UHGV virus genome: UHGV-0286546
Length of the DNA: 64,000 nt
Direction: 5' to 3' (one strand)
Source: a virus
Below are positions 38,895 to 63,459 of the stretch, in pieces. Under the pieces are notes generated by a model. That model ran no database searches, had not been told where the DNA came from, and worked only from the letters and a program-made list of their open reading frames with translations. Numbering within the stretch: position 1 is the stretch's first letter; each line of letters opens with the position of its first letter. Made by a program: the position numbers and the translations under genes.

Positions 38895-39872
38895 TTAATC
38901 TAAAATATAACTATAAATACTTTTCATTCCTGGACATCCTGTTTCATCAAAAATTAACTGAAAGCAATCTCCATTACAGTATTTAAAAAATTTACAAGTT
39001 AAACAATTTATAGATCTTTGTTTTTCTAAGTTTATTAAATTTTCTTTTATTTTTGTATCTATTTTGTCTAAATTACCATATTTTTTATCACAAGTATTAG
39101 GACATCCTGCTATTGTACCGTCTGGATTTATAGTAATTACATCATTCATACAAGATCTATTTCTACAACCTAAGAAAATACCATTGATAGATTGTTTAAT
39201 CCCTTCAAATAAAGGTATTTTAAGTTTATTATTCTTTTCGTATAGTTTATAAGCTTTTAATAACCAATTTTGTAAATCTATATTATATGGTCTTAAGTTA
39301 TTATCTAAGGCTCTACCCGTATTAGTTATTCTTTCAAAATTAAAATTATATATATCTTTATCTGTAAAATATTTAAAGATTTCTTCAGGTTCTTTTTCTT
39401 TTATTAAAATATTAGTAAGACATATAATAGGTTGTACATTTATATTATTTTCTTTTAATAACCTAACATTATTTTCCCAAAGTTCTTGTTGATCATCTTT
39501 AAAACGTATTTTATAATCCCAAGATGTTAAAATAAAAGGATTATTATCAAAAGGTAACATCTGTTTAAAAATATCTAAATGTTCTTTTGTTATTTCATAT
39601 ATTAAGTTTGTAGTAATTGTCCATTTAAAGTTTAAATTTTTAGTTTTATATAAAAGATATTGGATATTAGATATATCATACATAAAAGGTTCACCTCCAT
39701 GTAAATGTATATCTATTTCTTCATTATTAGTATTTAATGATTTTAAATAAATAATTACTTTTTCTAATATATTTTTTGACATATTACTATGATTATGTAA
39801 AATTTCATTATAACAATGCTTACATTTTAAATTACAAGCGTTTGTTAATTTTATATATATAGTTTTAGTCAT
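38895..39872 (-). CDS. Radical SAM enzyme with SPASM-like C-terminal Cys-rich domain (family B)
   Basis: N-terminal CNLKCKHC (CxxxCxxC) and HGGEPFM (GGE SAM-binding motif). C-terminus CLTCKFFKYCNGDCFQLIFDETGCPG has multiple Cys typical of SPASM/twitch auxiliary clusters. Confidence 0.85.
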   Translation of the reverse strand: MTKTIYIKLTNACNLKCKHCYNEILHNHSNMSKNILEKVIIYLKSLNTNNEEIDIHLHGGEPFMYDISNIQYLLYKTKNLNFKWTITTNLIYEITKEHLDIFKQMLPFDNNPFILTSWDYKIRFKDDQQELWENNVRLLKENNINVQPIICLTNILIKEKEPEEIFKYFTDKDIYNFNFERITNTGRALDNNLRPYNIDLQNWLLKAYKLYEKNNKLKIPLFEGIKQSINGIFLGCRNRSCMNDVITINPDGTIAGCPNTCDKKYGNLDKIDTKIKENLINLEKQRSINCLTCKFFKYCNGDCFQLIFDETGCPGMKSIYSYILD

Positions 39873-40902
39873 TATTTAATAAAAAGTAAGGTTTTAAAAA
39901 TTCTTTAGTTTTTTCTAAGTCAATATCTTTTTTCTTAAATATAAAAAAATCATATAAGGTAAAGGGATCAACAATAATACACACTGGAATACTAGGATAA
40001 CCAATATAAAGAGAAGATAGTAATTGTTTATAAGATAAGCTACAAACAAAATGTCCATCGTTTGTTAATTTTAAAACGATTACTTCTCTGGGTAAATTTT
40101 CAGCCATATCTTTACAACAAAAGTTTAAATTTGTTTGATTTAATTCAACATGGCCTATAAATGCTTTGTTTGTAATATTGTAGTGTAATATCTTATTTTC
40201 AATTATAATGTTTCTATATAATTCTTTAGGTAAATTAGTATAAAGAGCATAATGTTCAAAATATCCTTCTTTTTCCGGAGGAGGAATTAAAGTATAATAT
40301 TCTTTTTTTAAAATTGACCAAATAGCTTTTTCTGGTAAGTATTTAAATTCTAATTTTGGAATTTCAAAATCTTTTTTACATTTATTTAAACAAGGAGGTA
40401 TATTTTCACACAAATCCATATTAAATAATAATATAGTTACATCTAATTCTCCTCTTATTTGTAAAAAATGTTTTATTACTTGAGGAAGTTGTAACGTATC
40501 TTTATTTCCATAATAATTTAATCCACATTCTTGTCTGCTTAATAATTCATTTAACGCTTCTTCTGTAATCGGTTCATATTCAGTTATATTTATATTTTTA
40601 AATTGTTTTAAATCTTCATATTTTAAAGTAATTGATAAATATTCAGATTTTGAACACCAATCCAATAGATCATTTTTAGCAATATTTATTTTTTTGTATG
40701 AAAAGTCTAAATTATCTAAATCTAAAGCTAGTTTTCTAACTAAGTATTTTAAATAATTTATTTGATTTGAATATGTTTCAACAGTCCAATCTTTAGGTTC
40801 CGCATAAATATCATCTCCTTCTTCATATGAAATAGAAGGATTGTATCTTAAATTTTTATCTTCTAATATTGAAATAGGTAAAGCTTTTGCTATTTTAAGC
40901 AT
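39865..40902 (-). CDS. Hypothetical protein (345 aa) in rSAM operon
   Basis: Complete ORF overlapping the downstream rSAM gene by 8 nt. Contains scattered Cys (CCKDMAENLPREVIVLKLTNDGHFVCSLSY...) but no rSAM motif. Confidence 0.35.
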   Translation of the reverse strand: MLKIAKALPISILEDKNLRYNPSISYEEGDDIYAEPKDWTVETYSNQINYLKYLVRKLALDLDNLDFSYKKINIAKNDLLDWCSKSEYLSITLKYEDLKQFKNINITEYEPITEEALNELLSRQECGLNYYGNKDTLQLPQVIKHFLQIRGELDVTILLFNMDLCENIPPCLNKCKKDFEIPKLEFKYLPEKAIWSILKKEYYTLIPPPEKEGYFEHYALYTNLPKELYRNIIIENKILHYNITNKAFIGHVELNQTNLNFCCKDMAENLPREVIVLKLTNDGHFVCSLSYKQLLSSLYIGYPSIPVCIIVDPFTLYDFFIFKKKDIDLEKTKEFLKPYFLLNND

Positions 40903-40904
40903 GG

Positions 40905-41660
40905 TTATTTCTCAGTAATTAAATTTTCTACATCTGATACAAATTCTGACCAGTTTTCTTGACCCATTCCGTATAATAACACCGAAAAAGGAGTAAATTT
41001 AAGAATAGTATCAAATAATTCGTTGTTATCTTCTGTAAAAATACTTTTATAAAAAACAGGAGTATCGTTTTCTAAAGTATCATAAATAAACATGAAGTAT
41101 TGGTTACGTATAATATCACATATTGAATTATTAAAGAGTTTATCCTCAACCGTTTCTATTTCATTAAAATCTAATTTTTCATTTTTATTAAAATCTAATC
41201 TAGAAATAGGATATAAAGGTAATGAAATAATAAATCGATTGATTTCTTTTAAATAATCTTTATTGTTTTTTATAAAGTTTTCAATTTCTTCGTTTGTTAA
41301 AATACTTTCAATTGGAAAATCTTGTTGATTATAAAAACCTATAATTTTTATCCAAGTGTTAGTACATTCTTCAAATATATATTCTATATCCCCTTTCAAA
41401 TAATACAATAAAAATTGTTCTTTAAAAGAATATTCAGTATTTGAAAAATCTAAATCTATATTTGAATATCCAGTGTTCCTTAAATAAATATATGTAACTC
41501 TAATATTATCCTCTTCGTTTATATTTGGATAATTGAGGTTAGACATATCTATAATGGCACCATGTTCAGAAATATCTGTCATTTGATTTATATCGTAAGG
41601 TAACCCTGTTTTAATTTGCATAATATTATCTACGTCCTCTATTTGAATAACAACTTCCAT
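40905..41660 (-). CDS. Hypothetical acidic protein (251 aa) in rSAM operon
   Basis: Complete ORF. No motif. Confidence 0.3.
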   Translation of the reverse strand: MEVVIQIEDVDNIMQIKTGLPYDINQMTDISEHGAIIDMSNLNYPNINEEDNIRVTYIYLRNTGYSNIDLDFSNTEYSFKEQFLLYYLKGDIEYIFEECTNTWIKIIGFYNQQDFPIESILTNEEIENFIKNNKDYLKEINRFIISLPLYPISRLDFNKNEKLDFNEIETVEDKLFNNSICDIIRNQYFMFIYDTLENDTPVFYKSIFTEDNNELFDTILKFTPFSVLLYGMGQENWSEFVSDVENLITEK

Positions 41661-42318
41661 GACAATTATTATGACATGTATAGAAATTATAAACTAATCC
41701 TCCCGCACTAAAACATTGTGATTGCCAGGTGTTATAACAGTTTGAAATTGTATTGTTCATTGAATTAGCAGAAGCTAGACCTTCTTTTACAATTTCAGTA
41801 GGAGGTGTAACATTAGGAGCTGTATTACCTTTTCTTTCCCAAAATTCCGTTTTAGATTGATTACCATCAGCACCACCAGGAACAGCAGGAAAAGCAGTAT
41901 TAAAAATACCACCACCACTTATACTTTGGATTAAATTTCTTGTACCTTCAGTTTTATGATACCAGTTTGTAGTAAAATAACGAATTTTACTTAAGGTTCG
42001 TACTATTCTTAGCATATTATCCCAAAGAGTAGAAGCTGTAATAATTTGATCAGAAATAGTCCAAGTTGGTTGTGCATCTATAGCAGCTAATTGATTACCA
42101 GGCATTGCAACAGGATTAGTCCAGCCTAATGTTGCCCAGTTTCCATTGTTACCTGTTTTACCATAATAAGCAGTACCTGTAAAATAAGGAATGTTACCAC
42201 TATGATATTGAATTTTACTATAAATAGTTGCTGTAACTCTAGTATTGAATTCGTTAATAGCACCGATTAAATTATCTCTAGAAACTTTTACAATAAGTTG
42301 TTGTGCTGGAATTGTCAT
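41626..42318 (-). CDS. Gly/Asn/Thr-rich protein with C-terminal 6-Cys tail; candidate rSAM substrate
   Basis: 230 aa. The last 38 aa are NCYNTWQSQCFSAGGLVYNFYTCHNNCHGSCYSNRGRR (6 Cys, a basic terminus). Embedded between rSAM genes. Confidence 0.4.
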   Translation of the reverse strand: MTIPAQQLIVKVSRDNLIGAINEFNTRVTATIYSKIQYHSGNIPYFTGTAYYGKTGNNGNWATLGWTNPVAMPGNQLAAIDAQPTWTISDQIITASTLWDNMLRIVRTLSKIRYFTTNWYHKTEGTRNLIQSISGGGIFNTAFPAVPGGADGNQSKTEFWERKGNTAPNVTPPTEIVKEGLASANSMNNTISNCYNTWQSQCFSAGGLVYNFYTCHNNCHGSCYSNRGRR

Positions 42319-42319
42319 T

Positions 42320-43243
42320 TTAATTAACCTTCATTTTATTTAACAAATAATATAGCCCTGAACAATACGGTTTATCGATTTCAATTAGATGCTCTGCTTT
42401 ACATTTAGTGAAATATTTACAGTCTTTACAATTTTTATTATACCAAATCTTTTCTTCGTTACAAAAATCTTTCCACTGCTGCAAGGTTTGAAATTCAACC
42501 GGATACTCTATACTTTCTTTATATTTAATTGAACTGAAATTGCCGTTTGGATTAAGAAAAACGAAACTATCTGCTAAAGGTGAATACTTTGAATCTCTTA
42601 GAATTATTTCATTACAAATAGTAAATTTATAATTATGTTTATTCTTTTCATGTATAATTTTATCTAAAAATAAAATATAATCCTTTGTAGTAATATTATA
42701 AACTTTTTTTGAATAAATTGAAGGATGATACTGTATAAAATTTACATCAAAACCCAATTCTTCATACATGTCTAGCAAAGTAAAAATGTTTTCGTTGAGT
42801 AATGACGGTAAAACGACAACAGATAAACTAATTATTGGTAAATGTTTAAAGTTTTTTAAATTTAACAATGTTTTTTCATAAAAAGGTCTTTCCTTATTTA
42901 AGGATATACCACAATTACAATTATTTAATAAACAGAATTCTAAAATTTTAGTATTAGAAAAATTTGTAATAAAGGTAGGTTTTATATTTTTTATTAATTG
43001 ATACAAATCATATAAATACGAATCATCTAATAAAGATATTTCTCCACCATATATTGTAGAGCTTTCAATTATATATTCTTTTTGTAATTCAGTTAATCTA
43101 GTTGATAATTTTTCCAAAGATAATAAATTTTTATTTTTTGTTAAATTACCTAAATAACAGTATTCACAACTGTAATTACAATAAAAAGAAGGCATAATAG
43201 AAATATTACTTAATGTTTTTAGCATTTTTATATTCTTCGACAA
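42320..43243 (-). CDS. Radical SAM enzyme with Cys-rich C-terminus (family B)
   Basis: CNYSCEYC near the N-terminus, YGGEISLL, and a C-terminal CNEEKIWYNKNCKDCKYFTKCKAEHLIEIDKPYCSG. Confidence 0.85.
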   Translation of the reverse strand: MSKNIKMLKTLSNISIMPSFYCNYSCEYCYLGNLTKNKNLLSLEKLSTRLTELQKEYIIESSTIYGGEISLLDDSYLYDLYQLIKNIKPTFITNFSNTKILEFCLLNNCNCGISLNKERPFYEKTLLNLKNFKHLPIISLSVVVLPSLLNENIFTLLDMYEELGFDVNFIQYHPSIYSKKVYNITTKDYILFLDKIIHEKNKHNYKFTICNEIILRDSKYSPLADSFVFLNPNGNFSSIKYKESIEYPVEFQTLQQWKDFCNEEKIWYNKNCKDCKYFTKCKAEHLIEIDKPYCSGLYYLLNKMKVN

Positions 43244-44291
43244 AATTATTGTTGTTTTCTAAAAATTCGTACAATTGTTTAAAAGGACAATTTGTAGTTT
43301 TATAATTTTTGTATAGAATAGAAGTCCAACAAAAGCGTGGACATTGCATAAAGTATTTACAGTAGACGCATCCTCTTTTATTTTTACCTAAATTTGCTTT
43401 TATTTGTGAAACATTGTCTTCTGATATTTTTAAATTTCCATAAAAGTCTTCGTTTGGTAAAATAGATGATGTTTTTACACAGTTATATGTTACGCAATCT
43501 TTACACGCAGAAAGATGCTTATGACAACCACATATAAATTCTTTTTCTCTTTCTGGAAAACAAAAACTGTTTAAAATTTTTTGTAAATCTAATATATTAT
43601 AAAATTTATTGATTAAACAGGTTTTAAAGAATAAGAAAAGATCATCGTCACTAGGTAAGAGAGTTTTCCAGTTTATATTTGGAATGTAATAATTAATGTC
43701 TATTTTTTGTGTAAATTGTAAGTTTTGTAAATGGGTTAAATTATTACAATATTCAAGTATATTAGGTTTTGTAAGTGTAATTGATATTTCTTCCAATAGA
43801 TTAAGAGAATTAAAGTACTTTGCATTTGTTAGCATTAAATTTTTTTGTTCTTCTGTTTTAAATCTATCTATTGGATCGTAACTTATATTTAATTTACTGT
43901 TTGTATCGTGTAATAGTTTTAAAACTCTATCAGTCTTTTTATATACACCATTAGATACCCATAAAAAGATTAAAGTAATATCTGGAAAGACTTCTTTGAA
44001 TACTTTTTTGAAATTTGAAATTAGTTTCCTATATTCATCAAAAAGGGTATCCGGTAAAGCATCATAAAATAGTTCACCACCCCACATTCTAATAGCAATC
44101 TCTTTTGTATTTGGATATTTTTTATATTCTTCTTTAAATCTATCCACTAAAAGTTGAGGTATAGAATGAATCCAATTTAAATCTATTTTAGTATTTTCAT
44201 GCGCTTCTAAACAAAATTTGCATCTTAAATTACAAGCTTCGAATAAAATACAATCAAAACCAAAACGTATATCTTGAGAACTAGTAACCAT
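43206..44291 (-). CDS. Radical SAM enzyme with SPASM-like domain (family B, tandem paralog 1)
   Basis: CNLRCKFC, WGGELFY, and a C-terminal region with at least 9 Cys (ICGCHKHLSACKDCVTYNCV...GCVYCKYFMQCPRFC). Confidence 0.85.
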   Translation of the reverse strand: MVTSSQDIRFGFDCILFEACNLRCKFCLEAHENTKIDLNWIHSIPQLLVDRFKEEYKKYPNTKEIAIRMWGGELFYDALPDTLFDEYRKLISNFKKVFKEVFPDITLIFLWVSNGVYKKTDRVLKLLHDTNSKLNISYDPIDRFKTEEQKNLMLTNAKYFNSLNLLEEISITLTKPNILEYCNNLTHLQNLQFTQKIDINYYIPNINWKTLLPSDDDLFLFFKTCLINKFYNILDLQKILNSFCFPEREKEFICGCHKHLSACKDCVTYNCVKTSSILPNEDFYGNLKISEDNVSQIKANLGKNKRGCVYCKYFMQCPRFCWTSILYKNYKTTNCPFKQLYEFLENNNNFVEEYKNAKNIK

Positions 44292-45393
44292 TTCGCCAAT
44301 CCAAATAATCTATTAAAACTTCTTTATTGTTTTCAATATACTCATAAACTCTTTTATAAGGACAAATCGTAGGTTTAAACTTATTAAAAACAATTGCAAT
44401 CCAACAAAACATTTGACATCTGTTGTAATACTTACATGTTAAGCATCCTCTTTTTTGTAAACCTAGGGTTGCTTTTATCTTATTTGTATTTTCTTCTGTA
44501 ATGTTTTGTGTATATTCACCATAAAAACTTTCGCGTGGTAATAAAGAACTGCAAGTTGCACAATCTACACTCCATTCACCGTGTGTAATTTGAGAACAAT
44601 ATTGACAATCACAATATTTCGAAATGTTATCTTTACAGAAATATTGGAATAGCCTTTCTAATACTTTAATTTCATATAATTTGTTTTTAATAGCCCATTC
44701 AAAAAAGCTAAATATCTCTTCGTCAGTTGGCAGCAATTCTTCCCAGTTTGGATTTGCGATATAATAATTTAAATCTATATTATATCCGAGTTCTTTGAAA
44801 TACTTTAAATGTGATTTATCATTTATAAAAGCTTGAATTGAAGATTTTGTTAAAGTAATTGATATTTTCTTACCAACATTATTTTCTTTAAAATATTTAG
44901 CAGATTCTAGCATAGTATTCAATTGAGTTTTAGTTTTAAATCTATTACAAGGATCATAACTCAAATTGATTATACCTTTTGAATAATTTACTAGATCTAA
45001 TACTCTTTTTCTTTTATTGAATACTCCGTTAGAAAGCCAAGAGAACAGAATATTAAGTTTAGAGAAATGTAATTTAAAAAGAGAATTTATATTATCAACA
45101 AATTTATAATAACTATTAAAAATTTCATCCGATAAAGAATCGAAAAAGATTTCTCCTCCCCATAACATTAAATATACAGTTTTTATAGAAGGATATTTTT
45201 CATATTCTTTTCTAAAATTATCATAAATAATGGTATGTAAATTTTCAATGTATTTAGTATCTATCTTTTTGTTTATGTGTGATTCAAAACAAAAATTACA
45301 TTTTAGATTACAATTTTCAAAAAACATACAGGCAATTTCATATGATTCTGGCTCTTTGTAAAAAGGTATAATTGGAGGAGTTACTTTTTCCAT
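44281..45393 (-). CDS. Radical SAM enzyme with SPASM-like domain (family B, tandem paralog 2)
   Basis: CNLKCNFC, WGGEIFF. Collinear similarity to 43206-44291 throughout (e.g. LSWLSNGVFNKRKRVLDL vs LWVSNGVYKKTDRVLKL). Cys-rich C-terminus. Confidence 0.85.
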   Translation of the reverse strand: MEKVTPPIIPFYKEPESYEIACMFFENCNLKCNFCFESHINKKIDTKYIENLHTIIYDNFRKEYEKYPSIKTVYLMLWGGEIFFDSLSDEIFNSYYKFVDNINSLFKLHFSKLNILFSWLSNGVFNKRKRVLDLVNYSKGIINLSYDPCNRFKTKTQLNTMLESAKYFKENNVGKKISITLTKSSIQAFINDKSHLKYFKELGYNIDLNYYIANPNWEELLPTDEEIFSFFEWAIKNKLYEIKVLERLFQYFCKDNISKYCDCQYCSQITHGEWSVDCATCSSLLPRESFYGEYTQNITEENTNKIKATLGLQKRGCLTCKYYNRCQMFCWIAIVFNKFKPTICPYKRVYEYIENNKEVLIDYLDWRNGY

Positions 45394-46457
45394 TGTAAAT
45401 ACCTCTTAATAATATCTGGATTATTCTTTATATACTGTCTTATTTTTCTATGCGGGCATTCTTGTAAAATGTAATCTTCATGACAAAGCTGCATCCAACA
45501 GTACATACTACAATTATTATAATGTTCACATAAAAAACAATTTCTTTTTGTCATACCTTTCTTAGTTATATATTCTACTGCATCTTCTTCTTTTATATGT
45601 TTAAAATCTTTTCCATAAAATTGAATTAAATCTAAAGAAGGAATATAAACATTACAGCTATAATGTAATTTATTTTCATAAAAAATGACTGTATTTTTAC
45701 AATTACATGCTTTCGTTATTTTTTTATTTGAGTCTAAAGTATTTTCAAGTAAACTTTGTAAATAAATACAATTAAAAATGTCATTATCTAATAAAGTCTT
45801 AAAGAATATAAAAATATCTTCGTCTGTCGGTAGTAAAAAATCTTTATTTTTTGTTGGTACATAGTTATTGATATCTAAGTTTATATTTTCAAATACTTTT
45901 AGCTGTTTTGGATCTTCAACATAGTTTTTTATTGCAGGTTTTGTTAAGGTAATAGCAACGTTTTCGATTAAATTGTTATTTTTTAATTCATTGAAGTTAT
46001 TTATAAATAATGATCTTTGTTTTTTTGAAGTAAAGCGTCCAAAGGAATCATAAGATAGGGTTATCTTAGAATTTATATCTTTTAAAAAGTTTATTACTCT
46101 TTCTATATTATTATAAATACCATTTGACATTACATGACATTGTATTTTAATTTTATGAGTAGAGTACTGAGATAAAATGATATCTTTGTAGGCATTTATA
46201 AATTCATCAGAAATGCTATCTTGAAATAGTTCGCCACCTCGAATAGAAAGTTTTAAGATTTTAGTGTTTGGATGTTTTTTTAAGAGTGCTGATATAAGTA
46301 AATTTAGCCTATTAGGTAAACTCTTTAAATAATCTATACTTATTTCTTTTTGTGTATGATTTTGAAAACAATGTAGACAATTTAAATTACATTTTTCTAA
46401 CAGTACACAATCTATTGAAAGAGTATTATTTTTTAATGTTTCGTAATCTATATTCAT
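45381..46457 (-). CDS. Radical SAM enzyme with Cys-rich C-terminus (family B, tandem paralog 3)
   Basis: CNLNCLHC, RGGELFQ. Same architecture as the two preceding genes. C-terminal CNCKNT...CFLCEHYNNCSMYCW. Confidence 0.85.
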   Translation of the reverse strand: MNIDYETLKNNTLSIDCVLLEKCNLNCLHCFQNHTQKEISIDYLKSLPNRLNLLISALLKKHPNTKILKLSIRGGELFQDSISDEFINAYKDIILSQYSTHKIKIQCHVMSNGIYNNIERVINFLKDINSKITLSYDSFGRFTSKKQRSLFINNFNELKNNNLIENVAITLTKPAIKNYVEDPKQLKVFENINLDINNYVPTKNKDFLLPTDEDIFIFFKTLLDNDIFNCIYLQSLLENTLDSNKKITKACNCKNTVIFYENKLHYSCNVYIPSLDLIQFYGKDFKHIKEEDAVEYITKKGMTKRNCFLCEHYNNCSMYCWMQLCHEDYILQECPHRKIRQYIKNNPDIIKRYLQWKK

Positions 46458-47244
46458 GATAAAGTGTTTTTGGAAAACTACATTCTTTTTGTAAAATGCA
46501 AGGCTTACAAATATTTGCCAGCTTACAACTTAAACATTGTTGTAAAACATTAGTTTGTGTATATTGGGGACATCCCTTTTTCAATATTCCACTCGGTGTT
46601 AAGGTATATGTTTTAGAACAATCACAATTCCAATCAATTAAATTTTCGAATAAAAGATTTTTAAATGAAAACGACCAATCTTTAGATATTTTACATAACC
46701 AATTATCAACTCTTTCGTAAAATTCAGCTTTTTTAGAATTATCAACTAATTGTTCAAATTTTACACCAGTTATAGACTTTATCTTATCCAGTTTACTCAA
46801 TATTGTTAAAAAGGTATTATAATCACAATTTATTAAGTCTTCCGTTAAAGTAATTAAAATAATACAAGAAAGGTTGTATTGTTCCAATAGTTTTAAATTG
46901 TCTATCCAAATATCAAATTGTTTCGGGGTGAATCTAGTTTGATTCCAAGAGGTAGCAATATCTAAATCATAATCTTTTATTAATTTTAGAGAAGTTGCAT
47001 TTAATAATAATAGATTGGTTGAAATAGAGCTTATTTTTTTTGTTTCTAGGATAGGTATTAATTTTTCTTGTAGTAACAACGGTTCTCCACCAAACAGTAT
47101 CCCACGGTCGAAAAAAAGTGTCTTTAATTGTGATATAAATACAGATTCATTATATCTTTCTACTTTTTTATGTAATTCGCAGTGTGGACAGTCTAAATTA
47201 CAAGAGTATGTTGGAATGATGTATAATTCTTTTATAGTTTCCAT
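46426..47244 (-). CDS. Radical SAM enzyme (family B, shorter, 272 aa)
   Basis: CNLDCPHC, FGGEPLL. C-terminal CDCSKT...CPQYTQTNVLQQCLSCKLANICKPCILQKEC. Confidence 0.85.
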   Translation of the reverse strand: METIKELYIIPTYSCNLDCPHCELHKKVERYNESVFISQLKTLFFDRGILFGGEPLLLQEKLIPILETKKISSISTNLLLLNATSLKLIKDYDLDIATSWNQTRFTPKQFDIWIDNLKLLEQYNLSCIILITLTEDLINCDYNTFLTILSKLDKIKSITGVKFEQLVDNSKKAEFYERVDNWLCKISKDWSFSFKNLLFENLIDWNCDCSKTYTLTPSGILKKGCPQYTQTNVLQQCLSCKLANICKPCILQKECSFPKTLYHEYRLRNIKK

Positions 47245-48188: not shown

Positions 48189-48639
48189 CGATTAGAAATT
48201 CCTTTTTAAAGTAATTTATTGTCTTAAGTATAGAGTTATATTGCCAGATGTTTCCTATTTTTAGGAGAATTTTGTCATATTCTTTTTTATATTTACTGTA
48301 TTTGTAGTCTTTAAAATATTTATCATCTGGTAGTAAGTCGTCATCATCTAATGCTTCATAAAAAGGTACTTTAAAAAATTCTTCTAAACATTTAGCATAA
48401 ATAATGGCTACAAATATAGTTTTTGCTGGATAGACTAATTTAGATTCTGTTTTAAAAAATTTAATTACTTGATTAGGTATGTTTTTATAATTAACCGTAT
48501 AAGGTAAATTTATATCATCCCACTCATGTAATAAATATGATAATTGTCTTTTTTCTAATAGAGTTTTATTCATGTTTACTAGAACTTTAGAGTTTAGTTC
48601 TATTATAATAAGATCTTTAAAATATATTGGGATATACAA
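48154..48639 (-). CDS. Hypothetical protein, first gene of minus-strand rSAM operon (161 aa; start uncertain)
   Basis: The track ORF starts at a TTG at 48639 with no obvious Shine-Dalgarno. An internal ATG at 48571-48573 is an alternative start. No motif. Confidence 0.3.
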   Translation of the reverse strand: MYIPIYFKDLIIIELNSKVLVNMNKTLLEKRQLSYLLHEWDDINLPYTVNYKNIPNQVIKFFKTESKLVYPAKTIFVAIIYAKCLEEFFKVPFYEALDDDDLLPDDKYFKDYKYSKYKKEYDKILLKIGNIWQYNSILKTINYFKKEFLIDGTNNKTDWSL

Positions 48640-49876: not shown

Positions 49877-49887
49877 AAGGAAATAAT

Positions 49888-51340: not shown

Positions 51341-51343
51341 AAA

Positions 51344-54947: not shown

Positions 54948-54948
54948 T

Positions 54949-55965
54949 ATGCAAAAAACCTCTAATTTTTTTATTGTTTTAACGAATACTTGTAATTTAA
55001 AATGTAAACACTGTTATGATTTCAAATCGAATCTAAACATGACAGATTCGTTATTAAATAAAGTAGAAGATTACATAATCGATAGTATAAACAATAATCA
55101 AGATGAAAATGAGTTTTGTATAAATTATGTCGGTGGTGAAATAACCTTATATAATCAAACGAGATTAATTTCAAGTATTAAAAAGATAAAAGAAAGGTGT
55201 AAAAGTAAAACAATAAGATTTTTATCTCAATCTAATTTGAGTACTGATTTAAGTGATACCTCTCTTGAATTTTTTAAATTACTCGACGAGATAGGTACTT
55301 CATACGATCCATTAATACGTTTCACTAGCTATAACCAAAAGATAAAATGGATCGAAAATATCCGTAAAATACAAAGTCTGGGTGTACCGATTAGATTGAC
55401 AATTACTTTAACAAAACAGTGTATTGAAACATTAAATCCTGAAACCTTGTTAGATTTTATGTTAGCTCTAAATATAAAAATTTTGGAATTTAATCGTTAT
55501 TTTCCAACTCTATCAGATACTGTTTTTACAAATGTATTACCAAAAAACGATAAGGTGCGTGATTGGACATATTCGTTATTTATACAATACTTAAAAATTA
55601 AAAAGGCATGTGATTTTAGTTGTGTTAATTTGGATTGTTTAATTGATAGTTTCGAAGGTAATTACAACTGGGAACATGGAAGAACTTGTACTTTAGACAA
55701 TGAAACTTTTTCTCCAAACGGTGATATTTCAACTTGTATGTTAATGCAGAAGAAACCAATTTATAATTTGTTAAGAAATGAAAAATTAAATAATAAGGAA
55801 GATATTTTAAAAGAAGAACAAAATATTCCAGATTTATGTAAACAGTGCAAATATTTAAAGTATTGTAAAGGAGATTGTCAGCGTTGTATTTTTGATGAAA
55901 CAGGATGTACAACAGCTTATAAAATTTACGATTATTTGGAAGAAATGCAGAAACTAAAATCATGA
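54949..55965 (+). CDS. Radical SAM enzyme with SPASM-like domain (family B; C-terminus resembles 38895-39872)
   Basis: CNLKCKHC, VGGEITLY. C-terminal CKQCKYLKYCKGDCQRCIFDETGCTTAYKIYDYL parallels CLTCKFFKYCNGDCFQLIFDETGCPGMKSIYSYI in 38895-39872. Confidence 0.85.
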   Translation: MQKTSNFFIVLTNTCNLKCKHCYDFKSNLNMTDSLLNKVEDYIIDSINNNQDENEFCINYVGGEITLYNQTRLISSIKKIKERCKSKTIRFLSQSNLSTDLSDTSLEFFKLLDEIGTSYDPLIRFTSYNQKIKWIENIRKIQSLGVPIRLTITLTKQCIETLNPETLLDFMLALNIKILEFNRYFPTLSDTVFTNVLPKNDKVRDWTYSLFIQYLKIKKACDFSCVNLDCLIDSFEGNYNWEHGRTCTLDNETFSPNGDISTCMLMQKKPIYNLLRNEKLNNKEDILKEEQNIPDLCKQCKYLKYCKGDCQRCIFDETGCTTAYKIYDYLEEMQKLKS

Positions 55966-57272
55966 GTGTACCCTACGATTATAATTATACAACACTAAAT
56001 AATATACAGATTCATGTCACAGGTTGTGGTTTAGCGGAATACGACGCCAAGTGCTTTGCTTCTACTTTGCCTACAGACGAAAAAGCAATCGTTTTTGGTA
56101 CTTGTTCTTTTTTGAAAGAAAGAGAAATCGAGAATATGATTATCTTAAAATTATTATCATCAGTTTATACAGATTATACTTTTTATTTATTAGGATGTGA
56201 CATAAATAACAATAGAAATAGATATTTAAAATACGGTAAAGTTTTTTCTAACCAAGAAGTAAAAGCAATTATAAATAACAATAAATTAAAAGTAATAACT
56301 AGCTTAAACAATAAAGTTAGAATAAAAATACAAGATGGATGTAAAAACAATTGTAGTTATTGTATAATTCACAAATTGAGGAATGATTTATTTTCTGTTC
56401 CATATTCAAAAATTTATGATTCATTACTCAAATTAAATACTTTAGATACAATAGAAGAAATCGAATTTTCTGGTGTAGAAGTTTGTTATTATTACGATAA
56501 AGAAAATAAATTTGGATTAGTACAGTTATTAGATAAAGTAATTAAAGATTTTCCAAAGATAAAAAATATAACATTAACAGCATTAGATCCTGCTGCTAAA
56601 AATATATTCGATATTTTAGAGTTTGTATCTTTACACCGTGATAAATTTCTATTACCTTTGAATTTGGCTGTACAATCAGGTTGTCAAAAAACGTTAAATA
56701 ATATGAACAGACATTATTCTGTAGAAAGAATAATTGCAATCACAAATGCTGCAAATCAATATAAAATTCCGTTAAAATGGGATATTATCGTCGGTTTTCC
56801 AGGAGAATCAGAAGAAGATTTTAATGAAACTAAAAAGTTAATGCAAGATTTAATGATAAATACTGCAAATGTTTTTATATATTCACCTAGAAAAGGAACA
56901 GAGACTTATCTCAAGAAACAAGTACCAAATCTAACTAAACATCAACGTCAAAAAGAATTACTGAGTATGTTAGATAAAGTAGAAAATATATCAAGCGGTA
57001 ATGAAACTAAAAAGTTGATACAAGATCTAATGATAAATAATAATATAATATATTTACGTAAATTTTCAGATATTGTTAATTTTGTAAAGTATCCAAATTT
57101 AGATACAATGATTTGTTTTGATTATACACAAGATAATTATTCAGAGATTATAATTAACTTCTTAAAAGAATACTTTAAGGACATAAAATTAATTGTAAAT
57201 ATACCCAAAGAAAAAAATATAGATAAAAAAGACTTTGAAAATAAATTTATATGTAAAGTAAGATTTGTTTAA
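55962..57272 (+). CDS. MiaB/RimO-like radical SAM methylthiotransferase (N-terminal MTTase domain plus rSAM core)
   Basis: The N-terminal IQIHVTGCGLAEYDAKCF resembles the MTTase N-domain Cys cluster region. The rSAM motif is CKNNCSYC. Contains an internal repeat (ETKKLMQDLMIN at aa ~290 and ETKKLIQDLMIN at aa ~347). Confidence 0.65.
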   Translation: MSVPYDYNYTTLNNIQIHVTGCGLAEYDAKCFASTLPTDEKAIVFGTCSFLKEREIENMIILKLLSSVYTDYTFYLLGCDINNNRNRYLKYGKVFSNQEVKAIINNNKLKVITSLNNKVRIKIQDGCKNNCSYCIIHKLRNDLFSVPYSKIYDSLLKLNTLDTIEEIEFSGVEVCYYYDKENKFGLVQLLDKVIKDFPKIKNITLTALDPAAKNIFDILEFVSLHRDKFLLPLNLAVQSGCQKTLNNMNRHYSVERIIAITNAANQYKIPLKWDIIVGFPGESEEDFNETKKLMQDLMINTANVFIYSPRKGTETYLKKQVPNLTKHQRQKELLSMLDKVENISSGNETKKLIQDLMINNNIIYLRKFSDIVNFVKYPNLDTMICFDYTQDNYSEIIINFLKEYFKDIKLIVNIPKEKNIDKKDFENKFICKVRFV

Positions 57273-58722: not shown

Positions 58723-58735
58723 TGAATTCCCCTCA

Positions 58736-59581
58736 TTAATTTTTGTAATCGATTAAAGATAATTTTTCGATTTTTCCTGTCGATAATAATTTAATATTTT
58801 CTTTTAACATTCTTTTTTCATTAGATTCTAATAAATCTAAACTGGGTAAGTTTGCTTCATTTGTAAAGATATTCCATTTTGTTATATCTTCGTTCAATAT
58901 AGTTTTTATTGGTACATTTTGAGGTTCAATCTCTAAGGGAGCAAAGTAAGATTCTCCTACAAGAGAAATGGTATTTTTAATGATTGGTTTTTTAGAAAGC
59001 CAATTACCATCTTTGTCAACCATCGCTAAAAACCAATCTGAATCGTCTAATAAAACAATATCGTTGTTTCTATTTATAGCATAATCCGAAAATTTATTAA
59101 TACAATCTCTAATTACTTTTAAATCATAAACGTCTGGATAAGTTTCTTGGATTTGTTTAATAATAAGCTTTAATTTTAATTTACTTTCCAAAATTTTTAA
59201 TGTTTTTCCCCAATTTAGTAACAATTCTTCAAACGATAAGTCTTCTGGTGAGCAAACTTTTAAAATTTCTCTTTGTTCTACTTGGTATAAGATTCCATCG
59301 TTTTCTATTGTTTTAACATACCAATGAATATTAAAAACTTCTCTGTATATTTCTGCTAATTTCTCTCGTATTTTTTCAAAAAATCTACCCGAATGTCTAT
59401 CGATAGTGTATACTTTATAGAAATAATCTTTTGTTCCTATGACTAATTGATGTTCGTAATCTTTCCATTTTACTGATAATTCTGGATGAACATTCTCATC
59501 TAAAGATCGAATAATACTAAAAAATTTTTTAGTCGATGTTTCTTTTAAATCGAGTTTTTTCCAAGAAATTAATTCATTCAC
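58736..59581 (-). CDS. Hypothetical protein (281 aa)
   Basis: Complete ORF between two family-A rSAM genes. No motif. Confidence 0.3.
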   Translation of the reverse strand: MNELISWKKLDLKETSTKKFFSIIRSLDENVHPELSVKWKDYEHQLVIGTKDYFYKVYTIDRHSGRFFEKIREKLAEIYREVFNIHWYVKTIENDGILYQVEQREILKVCSPEDLSFEELLLNWGKTLKILESKLKLKLIIKQIQETYPDVYDLKVIRDCINKFSDYAINRNNDIVLLDDSDWFLAMVDKDGNWLSKKPIIKNTISLVGESYFAPLEIEPQNVPIKTILNEDITKWNIFTNEANLPSLDLLESNEKRMLKENIKLLSTGKIEKLSLIDYKN

Positions 59582-60504
59582 AAAAAGGCTTCTCCATCTA
59601 AATTTTCTAAATCACAAAGCATGCATTTATCTGAATCTGTATAACATTTATATAGAACAGAATGTCCACATTTAGGATTTATATCTTCTTTTCCGTCTGT
59701 TAGTTTTGGTGCTTCTGTATAATCATTTGATCCTCGTTCTTTTACACCTGTATATTTAAAAACACATGAATTTTTTGTAGATTGTAAAAATGATAGATAT
59801 ACAACCGGATTTGCACTTTTTAAGTATCTAATAAATCGTAAGAAGTCAGAACGTTTGAAATTAAAATCAGGAAGTGTATAACCTGTTTCGATTGGGTGTG
59901 GATATAAAAAGCATAATTGATTGCCCGGAATGTTTTCTTCAATAAACTTATTTACATCAAAGTTATTATTTTTCCATTCATCTATAACGTACTGGGTGAG
60001 TATCATTTGAACACCAACGCTATAATTATACTTTTTATGAAAGTCGTTGATATTCTTTAAACAGAGTAATCTAGCTTTTTCGTCTTTGAATCTGTATTTT
60101 AAATCATAAGAAAAGTTAATATCTACTTTTTGTATACCAACTGCATTAACAATTTTATCAATTACTTTATATAAAAACTCCGGATTATAAAGTCCGTTCG
60201 TAACAGTCGAATATCTACACTCTGGATTTTTTGATACTTTTAAAACTTTTTCGATAATAAGATCAATTAATTCTAAAAAGGAATCTTGTACTTCTTTATC
60301 TTGAATGAAATATAATTCACCGCCGAGAAGTGAAATACCATAACTAAATTGATTTTCCCAATCTACATAATCTAAGTTTTTCTTAATTTTATTTAATTGC
60401 CAGAGCTGTTTTTCTTTAGAATATGGAATTCTTTCTCGGCGTAAACAAAACTTACATTCGTTGCAGCAATTAGACCAAACCGCATATTGAACCATATTTC
60501 CCAT
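59578..60504 (-). CDS. Radical SAM enzyme, family A
   Basis: AVWSNCCNECKFC (CxxxCxxC counted from the first Cys), LGGELYF. C-terminal CGHSVLYKCYTDSDKCMLCD, parallel to 57766-58722 and 50462-51340. Confidence 0.8.
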   Translation of the reverse strand: MGNMVQYAVWSNCCNECKFCLRRERIPYSKEKQLWQLNKIKKNLDYVDWENQFSYGISLLGGELYFIQDKEVQDSFLELIDLIIEKVLKVSKNPECRYSTVTNGLYNPEFLYKVIDKIVNAVGIQKVDINFSYDLKYRFKDEKARLLCLKNINDFHKKYNYSVGVQMILTQYVIDEWKNNNFDVNKFIEENIPGNQLCFLYPHPIETGYTLPDFNFKRSDFLRFIRYLKSANPVVYLSFLQSTKNSCVFKYTGVKERGSNDYTEAPKLTDGKEDINPKCGHSVLYKCYTDSDKCMLCDLENLDGEAFL

Positions 60505-60523
60505 CTTTTTAGTATTTTCCTTT

Positions 60524-61078
60524 TTATGATAATGTATATGATATTTTTACCGGAACTACACGTATATATCCTTCATTTCTAACCATAATAGAAATTAAAT
60601 TTTCAATAATAAGTTTAGTATCTGAAACATCTATCATTTTTTCAACAGAAGGTACGTTTTTAATCCAATCTGATTCGTTTGCCCAATATATTAAGTATTT
60701 GACTAGTGAAGAAGTATCTTTATTATAGCGTGAAGATACAAAAGCCAATTTGGTTGCAGCGAAACATGCCAAATTGTTTAAATACGGATAAAAATCTTCT
60801 GGTGCTATTATTCCAGAAGGTGAACCAATAACTTGTAAAAACGCAGTCATATCTGTATCTACTTTTGATGTAGGAATAGCAAATTTAACAGGACTACTAA
60901 CAATACCAGTTACTTTTTCAACATATGCCCCACTACCAGAAGAGGCGGCTTCAAATTTAAAACCGTCTTTAACACAAGCATGCATACCACCATAATTAGC
61001 AATGTTTGCGCAATTGGTTTTCATCCAATTTTTTACAAGGTCACTCAAAGACTGATAGGTTATCGTTGGTAACGGCAT
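60524..61078 (-). CDS. Partner protein of the poly-Ser protein, paralog 2 (184 aa)
   Basis: MPLPTITYQSLSDLVKNW... resembles MSLPVVSYQTIINQLKSW... (49325-49876). Both end in (S/T)-LS after a Y/T-rich strand. Confidence 0.5.
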   Translation of the reverse strand: MPLPTITYQSLSDLVKNWMKTNCANIANYGGMHACVKDGFKFEAASSGSGAYVEKVTGIVSSPVKFAIPTSKVDTDMTAFLQVIGSPSGIIAPEDFYPYLNNLACFAATKLAFVSSRYNKDTSSLVKYLIYWANESDWIKNVPSVEKMIDVSDTKLIIENLISIMVRNEGYIRVVPVKISYTLS

Positions 61079-61771
61079 TTAAATATCCATATATGCTATA
61101 AAACTTGAAGATGATGATGAACTACTTGATGAACTACTAGAAGAAGACGAGCTTGAAGATGAACTACTAGAAGAACAAATATAAGATAAAACAGTAGAAA
61201 TCAAATGAGTATTATTTGTTGTACCTAATGCATTTAATAGATCTGTCAAAGAACTATTTACTTCTGAAGGTGAAATGTCAATAGAAGTAGAATTTAGACT
61301 ACACGTCGGAAAAGATGTTGCTTTTGAATTATAAAATATACGCGTTTCACCAGTAATAGCGCTTGTGACATAAACTAATTTTATAGACATAAAAGATGCT
61401 AAGTTATTATAAAATGCTAACATAGTTTTATATGAAACCGGTGTATTTGACTTTTCATATATAGCACGCGACTTTAAAAATGATAATAATTGATTTTCAA
61501 CTGTTGAAGCTGGAACAGCAATAAGTAAAGAATCATTTATTGTTTCTTTAACAGTTGAAGTATGTGCACTCCTTGCAACATTTCGAAATCCTGTTGCTGA
61601 CATTTTTGTTTCGGAATAGGTTTTGCTTATTCTATTAATAATTTGACCATTCTTAAAAGTTGTTGGTAAATTAGGATTTAAGCTATCTAAGTTTACACAA
61701 CTCGTTTTTAAAACTTTAAGTGCATGTTTGATTAAGTCGTCATAGGTTACTACGGTGTTTTCATTCAGCAT
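61079..61771 (-). CDS. Poly-serine-tailed protein, paralog 2 (230 aa from ATG 61769-61771; 25 Ser then FIAYMDI-stop)
   Basis: The internal Met (MLNENTVVTYDDLIKHALKVLKTSC) aligns with the N-terminus of paralog 1 (MNDIITYQEILDTALNRIKQKC) and has an AAGGAAAG Shine-Dalgarno ~8 nt upstream. The track ORF extends to 61825. Confidence 0.6.
   Translation of the reverse strand: MLNENTVVTYDDLIKHALKVLKTSCVNLDSLNPNLPTTFKNGQIINRISKTYSETKMSATGFRNVARSAHTSTVKETINDSLLIAVPASTVENQLLSFLKSRAIYEKSNTPVSYKTMLAFYNNLASFMSIKLVYVTSAITGETRIFYNSKATSFPTCSLNSTSIDISPSEVNSSLTDLLNALGTTNNTHLISTVLSYICSSSSSSSSSSSSSSSSSSSSSSSSFIAYMDI
61103..61177 (-). repeat. Poly-Ser coding tract (25 Ser codons, mixed agt/tca/tct/tcg/agc)
   Basis: Read codon by codon on the minus strand. 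Followed by codons for F-I-A-Y-M-D-I and a TAA stop at 61079-61081. Confidence 0.8.
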
Positions 61772-62465
61772 CTTTGCTTTCCTTGATAGTTTCAGTATCT
61801 TTAATCTCTTTAGCAAAATTTTCAAATAAATTTAAACCGACTGAATTCTTTAAGAACAAAGCGCTTAAGCATTCCATAGCATCAATTATATATGGACAGC
61901 TCGCTGTATCAAATTGTTCACCTGCAGCAAAAATACCAGATAATGTATAAAAATCTGTACTTAAAATAATTGATTTGTATGCAGCAGGCAAGGATATATA
62001 TTCGTCGGTTGGTAAAAAAGTGGTCTTGCTATAAGATTTAATTAAAGAAATAAAATACATTGATAATTGTTTAGAAAATATATTTAATTCATCTCGTACT
62101 TCTAACCTAACGTCGATTAGATCATCTATTTCATTAAAGTAAATATTTTCATCTTCAAAAAAGGAATCTTCTAAGGTATTATATACTTTAACTAAATTTA
62201 TGATGTTAAGGAGCATTAAAGGATCTTTTAATGTTTCTCTACTTAACGAAATACGTAAAGCTTCAATAATTAAATCAATATTTAAATTTTTTAACCTTGT
62301 AAGAATAATATCTTTGAACTCATCAGACTCTTCTAAAGTATAGATTTTATTCAAATTGTCTAAGAGTTCGTCGGTTGTAATATTTTTATCAAAAGAAATA
62401 GTATATTCAGTTTGTTCTTCTAGTGATTTTTTTGTAATGTTTGCTTTTACAAGGTTTAAATTCAT
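61761..62465 (-). CDS. Hypothetical protein (234 aa), paralog of 52354-53019
   Basis: See 52354-53019. Its stop overlaps the poly-Ser paralog start by 11 nt. Confidence 0.45.
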   Translation of the reverse strand: MNLNLVKANITKKSLEEQTEYTISFDKNITTDELLDNLNKIYTLEESDEFKDIILTRLKNLNIDLIIEALRISLSRETLKDPLMLLNIINLVKVYNTLEDSFFEDENIYFNEIDDLIDVRLEVRDELNIFSKQLSMYFISLIKSYSKTTFLPTDEYISLPAAYKSIILSTDFYTLSGIFAAGEQFDTASCPYIIDAMECLSALFLKNSVGLNLFENFAKEIKDTETIKESKDAE

Positions 62466-62547
62466 AACAAATACCGTCCTTTTTGGGTTGTTCTTATAGA
62501 TATATTATATTGAACTAAAAAACGAAAGTAATCCTAAGTAGATTTTA

Positions 62548-63459
62548 ATGAAAACAGCAATTCGTATTGAACTCATACCACTATATCGTTGTAATGAAAA
62601 TTGTAATTTTTGTTTATATCAGCATGAAAAAAATAACAAAAATACAGCAGATTTAGCATGGATAGATTCAACCTTAACTTCATTGCACTTTAAGTATGAT
62701 ATTCTTCAAATAAAAATTACTGGAGGTGAAATATCTTTACTTTCAGACTTTTACTTTGAGATGCTATTTAACTTATTAAAAATACATTGCAAAAAAATCA
62801 TTGTAGAAACCAATTTCGTTGAATTTAAGAAGGCTTTAATTAACAACTGTGATATAATAAACATAGGATATAATTTCAATAATAATCCTTTACAACAGCA
62901 GATTTTTAATAATATTAAAGCGGCTACAGCAACTGGAAAAAGTATAAATATAAAGTCCTTAGATATTTTTTGTAAAATAAATCATAATCAAATTATAAAT
63001 CATTTAAATTCACTTAAAATTAAATCCTGGGAGATTATACCTTTTCATCAGACACCATTTACATTATATAAATTTAGAGGATATTCAGAGTATGAAAAGA
63101 TTGTTGCTGAATATCTTAAATTGTCAAACAAGATGAAATTTGCTTTTCAAAATAAATTACAACTAGAGAATATTTTAAATCTTGATAACTATAACGTTAA
63201 AACAGTATATTTAACTCCTAATAATAAACTTGCTCTACAAAATTTTGATAATGATAACAACTTTTTCTTAGAAGAATTTGATAATGTTGAAGATTTATCT
63301 AAAAAAATGAAAGAAACGGAAAAAAAGAAAGATAAATTTTGTGAAAAGTGCACTTCTAAATTACAGTGTATGGCAAATAGTTTTATGAATTTGAATTATA
63401 CCGGACTCTCATGTAGTGGATTTAAAGATTTAATAAATAAGCATAAAGGTGGGCTGTAA
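62548..63459 (+). CDS. Radical SAM enzyme with Cys-rich C-terminus (family B-like)
   Basis: LYRCNENCNFC, TGGEISLL. C-terminal CEKCTSKLQCMANSFMNLNYTGLSCSGF. Confidence 0.8.
   Translation: MKTAIRIELIPLYRCNENCNFCLYQHEKNNKNTADLAWIDSTLTSLHFKYDILQIKITGGEISLLSDFYFEMLFNLLKIHCKKIIVETNFVEFKKALINNCDIINIGYNFNNNPLQQQIFNNIKAATATGKSINIKSLDIFCKINHNQIINHLNSLKIKSWEIIPFHQTPFTLYKFRGYSEYEKIVAEYLKLSNKMKFAFQNKLQLENILNLDNYNVKTVYLTPNNKLALQNFDNDNNFFLEEFDNVEDLSKKMKETEKKKDKFCEKCTSKLQCMANSFMNLNYTGLSCSGFKDLINKHKGGL

Follow-up and report, generated by a model that had tools for sequence, protein, structure and literature searches.

In the bacterial anti-phage system HXS, the folded protein HxsA, which carries His-x-Ser repeats, is matured by two radical S-adenosylmethionine (SAM) enzymes named HxsB and HxsC (PMC13128918), while 11 and 12 radical-SAM genes have been reported in the Campylobacter phages CP220 and CPt10, respectively (PMC2853527). 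Clusters of such genes also occur in cultured jumbo phages including Ralstonia phage RSF1 and Agrobacterium phage Atu_ph07, where they are annotated only generically ('radical SAM domain-containing protein' or similar) and no function was reported in the literature searched. Herein, a 64,000-nucleotide stretch of the virus genome UHGV-0286546 (the window) is described, in which positions 38,895 to 63,459 harbor 15 radical-SAM genes. An earlier note, made from the letters of the window, had regarded them as one island; they constitute two separately conserved, adjoining modules, termed module 1 (38895-48639) and module 2 (48644-63459). Judging from gene context, each module on balance probably matures a dedicated phage protein by serial radical-SAM reactions on its C-terminal tail.

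All 15 enzymes belong to the radical-SAM superfamily, which is established by profile matches, paralogy and a confident structure model and which bears out the identity proposed earlier. Their open reading frames (ORFs) are all present where the earlier note placed them, and each is named here by its low coordinate, which for minus-strand genes had been quoted as the start and is in fact the stop-codon end. The motif CxxxCxxC is found in every one of them, at residues 11-28 in 14 and at residue 127, behind a MiaB-type N-terminal domain, in 55962. The GGE motif, claimed for the whole set as well, follows 40-55 residues later in 13; 47232 has GGD instead and 55962 has neither. Among ORFs of at least 150 amino acids (aa), CxxxCxxC is carried by 15 of the 29 in the island versus none of the 25 in window 1-38894, and shuffling of residues within the island proteins gave a mean motif count of 0.29 with a maximum of 3, so that chance is excluded for the CxxxCxxC count. 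Cysteine accounts for 2.9% of the residues inside the island versus 0.8% outside, and the radical-SAM ORFs occupy 60% of its 24.6 kb. Pfam PF04055 was matched by 13 of the 15 at E<0.01, and its gathering score (29.5 bits) was passed by 38895, 47232 and 55962 only; 53117 and 57766, the two that gave no match, are clearly paralogous to 54036 and 59578. The partial TIM-barrel radical-SAM fold was recovered, and the AlphaFold model of 59578, built with 50 sequences, reached a predicted local distance difference test score (pLDDT) of 93.8.

On the basis of all-against-all BLAST, the enzymes were grouped into families A to E and one MiaB/RimO-like member. The earlier statement that most of them have C-termini of the SPASM/twitch kind holds as far as the Cys motif is concerned, since a CX2CX5C(X3C)-type motif is visible in nine (38895, 54949, 42320, 62548, 43206, 44281, 45381, 46426 and 47232), in families B, D and E and in 46426 as judged by eye. 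It does not extend to the SPASM profile TIGR04085, which is listed for 54949 only (29.4 bits, cut-off 27), nor to the remaining enzymes: three family C members end in CGH...CxxC instead, 53117 and 54036 have no C-terminal Cys motif, and 55962 is of the methylthiotransferase type. The family A enzyme 38895 aligns along its full length with SPASM maturases, namely the NCBIfam models of DynA, PapB and anSME, at scores all far below the equivalog cut-offs.

Each module is a conserved gene neighbourhood built around a protein whose low-complexity C-terminal tail is itself conserved, and SPASM-type enzymes adjoin these tail-bearing proteins. In module 1, the protein termed Z has a C-terminus that is nearly alike in three very different phages and is encoded beside enzyme A each time, reading ...TCHNNCHGSCYSNRGRR in the window (also given as ...CHNNCHGSCYSNRGRR), ...VCHSSCHSSCHGSRGRR in RSF1 gp071 and ...FCHSSCHASCHNSRSRR in Atu_ph07 gp170. 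A degenerate DNA pattern for CHxxCHxxC[H/Y]xxRxRR-stop was detected in at least 120 viral contigs, where about one chance match is expected by our own rough estimate. These contigs yielded at least 139 Z ORFs of 43-364 aa with the consensus VCHxSCHSSCHxSRGRR, in which C, H, C, H, C, R, R and R are invariant, and the C, H and R positions of the tail are invariant in 31 aligned members. No Pfam family and no PDB relative was found for Z, tblastn with two typical metagenome Z proteins gave no match, and the motif strings of the tail retrieved only irrelevant matches in the searchable literature.

Local profile searches revealed a canonical operon around Z, in the order cupin, A, Z, gp073-like, B, E, D, gp074-like radical-SAM gene (one to five copies), 48154-like and 2-oxoglutarate (2OG) oxygenases, in which RSF1 gp069 is a Cupin_2/JmjC_2 protein and RSF1 gp080 a 2OG-Fe(II) oxygenase. 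Z, A, the gp073-like gene, B, E and D are all found in window 38895-48639; compared with the canonical operon, module 1 shares its parts in a reshuffled order, with B triplicated, an additional radical-SAM gene (46426), and the O2-dependent cupin and 2OG-oxygenase partners absent. Whether 38895, 44281 or 47232 served as the query, tblastn retrieved the same 15-18 cultured jumbo phages, with the matches within a few kb of one another; these are the Ralstonia phages RSF1, RSL2 and the FLC4 phages, the Burkholderia phages FLC6, FLC8 and SURPRISE13, Agrobacterium phage Atu_ph07, Sinorhizobium phage Phosso and Pseudomonas phage pPa_SNUABM_DT01. By local BLAST, RSF1 and Atu_ph07 both have orthologues of families A, B, D and E and of the 48154 protein that ends the module, and many IMG/VR contigs contain 4-8 ORFs with the radical-SAM motif within 15 kb; both findings speak against the earlier belief that no tailed phage has such numbers of radical-SAM genes. 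In RSF1, genes for an HNH endonuclease and two dihydrofolate reductases break up the operon (L012; RSF1 80329-81618). Two tandem Z genes, each of about 127 aa, precede up to five gp074-like radical-SAM genes in tandem on many contigs of the marine type (GC 35-39%; e.g. L014, L040, L049 and L100-L102), and L101 has eight CX3CX2C ORFs within 13 kb. The supplements of virion proteomics on the related Ralstonia phages RP12 and RP31 describe a different radical-SAM cluster and held no usable information on Z.

The operon is not confined to viral contigs. Among 185,579 species genomes, the Z pattern gave 48 matches, of which about 38 are real Z loci with a radical-SAM operon (within L151-L193), the others being high-GC chance matches devoid of a Z ORF. 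About 27 of the roughly 38 belong to Bdellovibrionota, namely Bdellovibrio, Bacteriovoracaceae, Halobacteriovoraceae and Pseudobdellovibrionaceae. Three loci lie on contigs of 1.3-2.8 Mb (L167, L169 and L191); the flanks of L169 and L191 look cellular by eye, with lipoprotein-like and LspA-like ORFs, and the 8-kb locus of L167 consists almost entirely of operon genes. Such chromosomal loci may be of prophage origin. In the two smallest loci, the set is reduced to Z, radical-SAM B and a gp074-like radical-SAM gene, accompanied in L169 by a gp073-like ORF.

Module 2 is present in about a dozen related large phages. Scanning IMG/VR with 54036 found nine large viral contigs (76-282 kb, locus GC 25-50%), in which the genes termed X, Y1 and Y2 are followed by three to eight family C radical-SAM genes (five to eight in eight of the nine), the orthologues of the 50462, 53117, 54036, 59578 and 57766 types standing largely in conserved order, and 51344-like and 57269-like proteins occur in some of them. 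In the window, the cassette is divided between the two strands as two sub-cassettes, both of which have an X and a separate Y1-Y2 pair. Y1 aligns along all of Y2 and continues into 20-35 serines (with some Cys in other phages) and a terminal FI[A/V]YM[D/K]I; by alignment, it is the Y2 fold plus a tail. The serine tracts use all six Ser codons in mixed order, which indicates that selection on the protein keeps poly-Ser in place and that slippage did not produce it. The DNA pattern Ser4-x-FI[A/V]YM[D/K/N/E]I-stop was found in 12 viral contigs, all of 38-287 kb, and a protein-database search with 61079 from which poly-Ser had been removed found six proteins only. In a higher-GC clade (P0139, P0141-P0143 and L008:4048-4728), the Y1 tail is periodic, with Cys at every eighth residue (CSSSSSSS repeats) and the end YIAWYNLVA, a pattern which recalls Cys-repeat radical-SAM substrates. 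The possibility that X is a gp073-like homologue was rejected (hhalign probability 0.3%).

Family C is compact, divergent and rare. A profile search of 1.84 billion representative proteins returned 717 at E<=1e-3 and 212 at E<=1e-30, a word-indexed search returned 1103 clusters at 90% identity, many on 150-290 kb contigs, and tblastn with 59578 found no match in cultured phages (50,697 phage records). The three cluster cysteines, GGE (G61, G62, E63) and an S-x-D-x3-R motif are invariant, and three subtypes end in CGH-x8-10-C-x2-C, which the 53117 and 54036 types do not. In a PDB profile search, the family matched the peptide epimerase YydG best (E 6e-7, N-terminal 177 positions); viperins came next, with matches confined to the first 66 positions. 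The MiaB/RimO-like enzyme 55962 retains the three N-terminal cysteines and reaches 165 bits on TIGR00089 (cut-off 251), the match ending at residue 342 of 436 with the TRAM domain unmatched; it is therefore not placed in that methylthiotransferase family. Natural fusions of about 670 aa, P0171 and P0221 (L195:684-2696), join a 55962-like N-terminal half to a C-terminal half of family C, the former half of P0171 being 28% identical to 55962 (E 5e-37), which links the 55962-type enzyme with the pathway of family C and not with tRNA modification. Family C is also fused to an AAA ATPase (P0161) and to a second radical-SAM domain (P0186).

In two of the related loci, L003 and L011, the ORF directly upstream of X matches the same tail-fibre PHROGs as the tail-fibre gene of the window, and the cassette thus abuts the tail-fibre block. 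The X-Y1-Y2/radical-SAM cassette directly follows several large paralogous proteins (L003:26-7096, L011:27-7097 and L010:34-7584); C-termini of the type W-[RK]-L-[VI]-F-[KR]-I are common to three of the four in L003 and L011, and two of the four in L003 match PHROGs that include tail or tail-fibre families.

The genes of both modules are compiled in Table 1. Pfam, PHROG, NCBIfam and PDB-sequence searches gave nothing informative for Z, X, Y, 51344, 39865, 49888, 57269, 58736 and the gp073-like protein. A guess of ours that 51344 is a pyridoxal phosphate-dependent enzyme found no support in any search.

Table 1. Genes of module 1 (38895-48639) and module 2 (48644-63459), with enzyme families as grouped by BLAST; numbers preceded by L denote loci and contigs, and rSAM stands for radical SAM
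Coordinates	Strand	Assignment	Properties and relatives
38895..39872	-	rSAM/SPASM enzyme, family A	PF04055 41.5 bits, above cut-off; CX2CX5CX3C; orthologues RSF1 gp070, Atu_ph07 gp171
39865..40902	-	345 aa, function not assigned	no Pfam or PHROG match; same-position homologue only in close relatives, e.g. L188; identity as gp073-like homologue rejected
40905..41660	-	RSF1-gp073-like partner	directly downstream of Z, position as in canonical operon; hhalign to gp073-like profile: probability 80%, E 1.4e-5, 115 columns
41626..42318	-	Z, candidate substrate	tail encoded at ~41629-41679
42320..43243	-	rSAM, family D	PF04055 E 1.9e-6; paralogue 62548; orthologues RSF1 gp081, Atu_ph07 gp164
43206..44291	-	rSAM, family B, first of three in tandem	31-42% mutual identity; weak PF04055 matches; CX2CX5CX3C; orthologues RSF1 gp075, Atu_ph07 gp168 (all three)
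44281..45393	-	rSAM, family B, tandem	as 43206
45381..46457	-	rSAM, family B, tandem	as 43206
46426..47244	-	rSAM, distantly related to family A	BLAST to 38895 E 4e-8; PF04055 E 3.3e-4
47232..48188	-	rSAM, family E	PF04055 60 bits, above cut-off; orthologues RSF1 gp079, Atu_ph07 gp165 (29-32% identity, 95% of length)
48154..48639	-	conserved terminal protein	phrog_20737, E 5e-16; recurs at end of canonical operon; homologues RSF1 gp085, Atu_ph07 gp149
48644..49324	+	Y1a, candidate substrate	~32-residue poly-Ser, then C-terminal TFIAYMDI; mixed Ser codons; orthologues with same tail in L003-L011
49325..49876	+	Y2a	tail-less Y1 paralogue (BLAST, alignment)
49888..50406	+	172 aa, function not assigned	no Pfam or PHROG match
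50462..51340	+	rSAM, family C, 50462 type	in family alignment; orthologues 39-60% identical in L003-L007, L009-L011; best match in L008 22%, paralogue level
51344..52357	+	conserved 337-aa partner	invariant DDVHG and PRDY motifs; conserved in L003, L004, L005, L006, L011; no Pfam, NCBIfam or PDB match
52354..53019	-	Xa, conserved 221-aa partner	53% identical to 61761; in all nine related loci
53117..54043	+	rSAM, family C, no C-terminal Cys motif	50% identical to 54036; orthologues in all related loci; 53117/54036 subtype fused to methylthiotransferase-like domain in P0171
54036..54947	+	rSAM, family C, no C-terminal Cys motif	as 53117
54949..55965	+	rSAM/SPASM enzyme, family A	TIGR04085 match; 30% identical to 38895
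55962..57272	+	MiaB/RimO-like methylthiotransferase-type rSAM	PF04055 66.7 bits
57269..57769	-	conserved 166-aa partner	weak same-position homologues in L003, L006, L011
57766..58722	-	rSAM, family C, 57766 type	CGH...CxxC C-terminus; orthologues 35-68% identical in all related loci
58736..59581	-	281 aa, function not assigned	homologue in L007 only; no Pfam match
59578..60504	-	rSAM, family C, 59578 type	member modelled
60524..61078	-	Y2b	paralogue of 49325
61079..61825	-	Y1b, candidate substrate, second poly-Ser + FIAYMDI protein	44% identical to 48644; mixed Ser codons; true start likely ATG at 61771, called as 230 aa in near-identical contig L001
61761..62465	-	Xb	paralogue of 52354; canonical order X-Y1-Y2
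62548..63459	+	rSAM, family D, second copy	PF04055 E 2.3e-5; paralogue 42320; matches RSF1 gp081, Atu_ph07 gp164

A multi-enzyme modification system acting on neighbouring proteins, as envisaged in the earlier note, is the best-supported reading of these modules, and the suggestion that interleaved proteins are the substrates can be narrowed to the candidates 41626, 48644 and 61079, whose adjacency to radical-SAM genes is conserved across many genomes. In module 1, the SPASM-type enzymes would bind the Z tail and introduce cross-links (thioether or carbon-carbon) or other C-H functionalisations on its Cys/His/Ser/Arg repeat. In module 2, each conserved family C orthologue would catalyze a step of its own on the Y1 tail, for example epimerisation, oxidation or cross-linking, and methylthiolation of the serine tract might be added. 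Because neither a protease nor an exporter was detected, the modified proteins themselves, and not peptides released from them, are expected to be the active products. They are possibly virion or host-envelope-interacting proteins, since module 2 abuts tail-fibre genes in relatives and module 1 is common to predatory bacteria.

Several observations weigh against maturation of the tails. The pairing of enzymes with tails is inferred from gene context, and most radical-SAM matches fall below curated thresholds, none of the enzymes being placed in a characterised equivalog. The Z tail of the window departs from the consensus, with Y replacing the third His and N replacing Ser. No RiPP (ribosomally synthesised and post-translationally modified peptide) recognition element, protease or exporter was found in the island by Pfam, PHROG and NCBIfam scans. 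Moreover, the AlphaFold model of Y1 is poor (pLDDT 52, 10-sequence alignment), and the hhalign probability of homology between Z and Y is 42%.

It is also conceivable, albeit unlikely, that the enzymes serve a small-molecule, nucleotide or DNA-modification pathway (viperin-like, deazapurine, thymidine hypermodification or cofactor), with the small proteins as scaffolds or unrelated. Radical-SAM enzymes are known in phage thymidine hypermodification (PMC8989533), the dihydrofolate reductase genes inside the RSF1 cluster hint at nucleotide metabolism nearby, and viperin, as the second-best structural neighbour of family C, makes a nucleotide substrate possible for that family; the last two points count against a tail substrate as well. 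Several ORFs indeed match pVip/viperin and MoaA profiles, but the matches are low-scoring (17-47 bits) and span only the N-terminal 50-120 residues, the cluster-binding part. No full-length viperin match was found, the NCBIfam viperin matches reaching 17-44 bits against a cut-off of 180 and the PADLOC pVip models having no curated cut-off; assignment to viperins or to a defence system was accordingly rejected. Furthermore, profile scans of 27 island proteins, among which 60524 and 61761 are represented by their paralogues, found no QueC/D/E, DpdA, kinase, glycosyltransferase or nucleotide-binding partner, and the strongest conserved neighbours of the enzymes are the tail-bearing proteins.

A role in counter-defence or host takeover, in which matured Z/Y1 or released peptides act on host immunity or on the envelope, for instance as decoy or antagonist of radical-SAM-matured defence effectors such as HxsA, shares its mechanism with tail maturation and differs in the role of the product only; it is judged still less likely than the nucleotide pathway. 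The resemblance of the consensus Z tail to the HxS repeats modified by HxsB/HxsC speaks for it, as does the presence of the Z operon both in phages and in prey-invading Bdellovibrionota, chromosomal loci included. However, the radical-SAM enzymes of the window score 15-25 bits versus HxsB/HxsC cut-offs of 268-370, the PADLOC matches are generic N-terminal pVip matches only, and neither a signal peptide nor a peptidoglycan-binding domain was identified in Z. A function as auxiliary metabolic genes, through which the anaerobic metabolism of the host would be raised in the course of infection, as proposed for the radical-SAM genes of CP220/CPt10 by Timms et al. 2010 (PMC2853527), would suit a phage from a gut-type, probably anaerobic setting and yet is highly improbable here, as none of the 15 enzymes matches a metabolic equivalog, families A, B, E and C have no tblastn match in Campylobacter phages, and a host-derived metabolic origin looks unlikely for family C, which is rare (717 of 1.84 billion proteins) and gave no match in the 50,697 phage records, the contigs examined that carry it being large and phage-like.

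The carrier is most likely a gut jumbo myovirus of about 245 kb, of which the two modules form an adjoining accessory region. Window 1-35000 contains a structural module of the myovirus type, with baseplate wedge, tail fibre, portal and an endolysin-domain protein; the portal has a best identity of about 24% among the 50,697 deposited phages, and the island had no megablast match in the same records. Public read-set assemblies contain identical proteins, on contigs with lengths of 75-100 kb and of 243-245 kb, which points to the genome size. The structural genes are adjoined by a full-length GroEL-type chaperonin (window 30740-32386, minus strand; phrog_5725, E 2e-127), and between the structural block and the island lies a 743-aa protein (window 36033-38264, plus strand) with an acidic Pro/Asn-rich C-terminal region, for which no family was identified. 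GC skew changes sign with gene orientation, and ARAGORN found no tRNA or tmRNA gene in the whole window 1-64000. The GC content of the island (0.22-0.30, window 38001-64000) is below that of the structural region (0.27-0.36, window 1-36000). A host-derived island, despite this lower GC content, was rejected, both modules being conserved in other phages.

With regard to the host, the earlier note deduced an anaerobic or microaerophilic one from the dependence of the enzymes on Fe-S clusters and SAM. Phages that infect Ralstonia, Burkholderia, Pseudomonas and Agrobacterium have module 1, as do aerobic Bdellovibrionota, so that radical-SAM content alone is no sign of an anaerobic host. Such a host is nevertheless plausible for this phage from the combination of binning, the loss of the O2-dependent partners and the additional radical-SAM copies. 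A bin of Succinivibrionaceae, a metagenome-assembled genome, includes a contig 96.7% identical to window 35411-42168, and one copy of the 59578 protein bears the same label, which is weak evidence for an anaerobic gut or rumen host.

Until now, no function, substrate or product of either module has been described in the literature found. The occurrence of many radical-SAM genes in a tailed phage is already known, as the counts for CP220 and CPt10 demonstrate against the earlier belief that no tailed phage has so many, and module 1 itself already exists in cultured phages. The features that appear to be undescribed are the Z tail family with its operon, the occurrence of that operon in predatory bacteria, the cassette of Y1 with its poly-Ser/FIAYMDI tail, family C as a radical-SAM family in its own right with no chemistry assigned, and the stacking of the two systems, with 15 genes in all, in a single phage, a number that also corrects the idea of singly occurring phage radical-SAM genes. 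If the tails are the substrates, these modules would represent phage-encoded multi-step radical protein-maturation systems, and RiPP-like chemistry would then reach viral proteins of full size. With at least 120 viral contigs and about 38 cellular loci, most of the latter in predatory bacteria, the Z operon is widespread. The defined candidate substrates, namely a 16-residue Cys/His/Arg tail and a poly-serine tail, together with the enzyme sets and the cultured phages RSF1 and Atu_ph07, which are amenable to genetics, make the proposal directly testable.

A bolder extension, which we regard as speculative and rather improbable, is that phages and predatory Bdellovibrionota share an undescribed class of radical-SAM-matured proteins, in which a tail 'warhead' ((CHxx)3-RxRR or poly-Ser-FIAYMDI) is rendered heavily cross-linked or metal-binding by up to a dozen radical-SAM enzymes and is used for adsorption, penetration or the blocking of defences at the envelope of host or prey. 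Were this true, the radical-SAM enzymes that modify proteins would gain in family C a new functional class, with new chemistry on serine-rich sequences.

In comparison with known systems, family A resembles radical-SAM/SPASM maturases (PapB of ranthipeptides, DynA and anSME) in full-length alignment and in the CX2CX5CX3C SPASM motif, and the family C model (59578) is structurally closest to anSME, ChlB, SkfB, SuiB and CteB, whereas all scores of the window enzymes are far below the equivalog cut-offs. As in RiPP clusters, the enzymes adjoin Cys/Ser-rich candidate substrates; unlike in those clusters, the candidates are proteins of 125-300 aa with short C-terminal tails instead of short peptides, and up to 15 radical-SAM genes are present versus one or two. 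The enzyme 55962 shares with MiaB, RimO and MtaB the three N-terminal cysteines, the radical-SAM core and the TIGR00089 match, but it remains below the cut-off without a TRAM match, is located in module 2 and is fused elsewhere to family C. Campylobacter phages CP220 and CPt10 are likewise T4-like low-GC phages of gut bacteria with unusually many radical-SAM genes, which in their case are partly scattered and associated with amidinotransferases.

True homology exists between module 1 and the clusters of the cultured jumbo phages (RSF1/RSL2 gp070-gp081, FLC6/FLC8, Atu_ph07 gp164-gp171, Phosso and pPa_SNUABM_DT01), which share A, B, D and E orthologues, Z with the same tail, and the gp073-like and 48154-like proteins; theirs differ in that four or five radical-SAM genes are accompanied by cupin and 2OG oxygenases and follow the canonical order. 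The HXS system is bacterial and defensive; its HxsD and peptidoglycan-binding domain were not found here, and the window enzymes are not members of HxsB/HxsC (best 25.1 bits against a cut-off of 370 and 19.8 bits against 268). Z further differs in the Cys between its repeats and in the invariant RxRR end. The consensus Z tail, CH-S-S-CH-S-S-CH-x-S-RGRR, nevertheless holds basic residues and three HxS units separated by Cys, of which the window tail, CHNN-CHGS-CYSN, retains one strict unit. HXS is the nearest functional precedent for radical-SAM maturation of a folded protein with His/Ser repeats.

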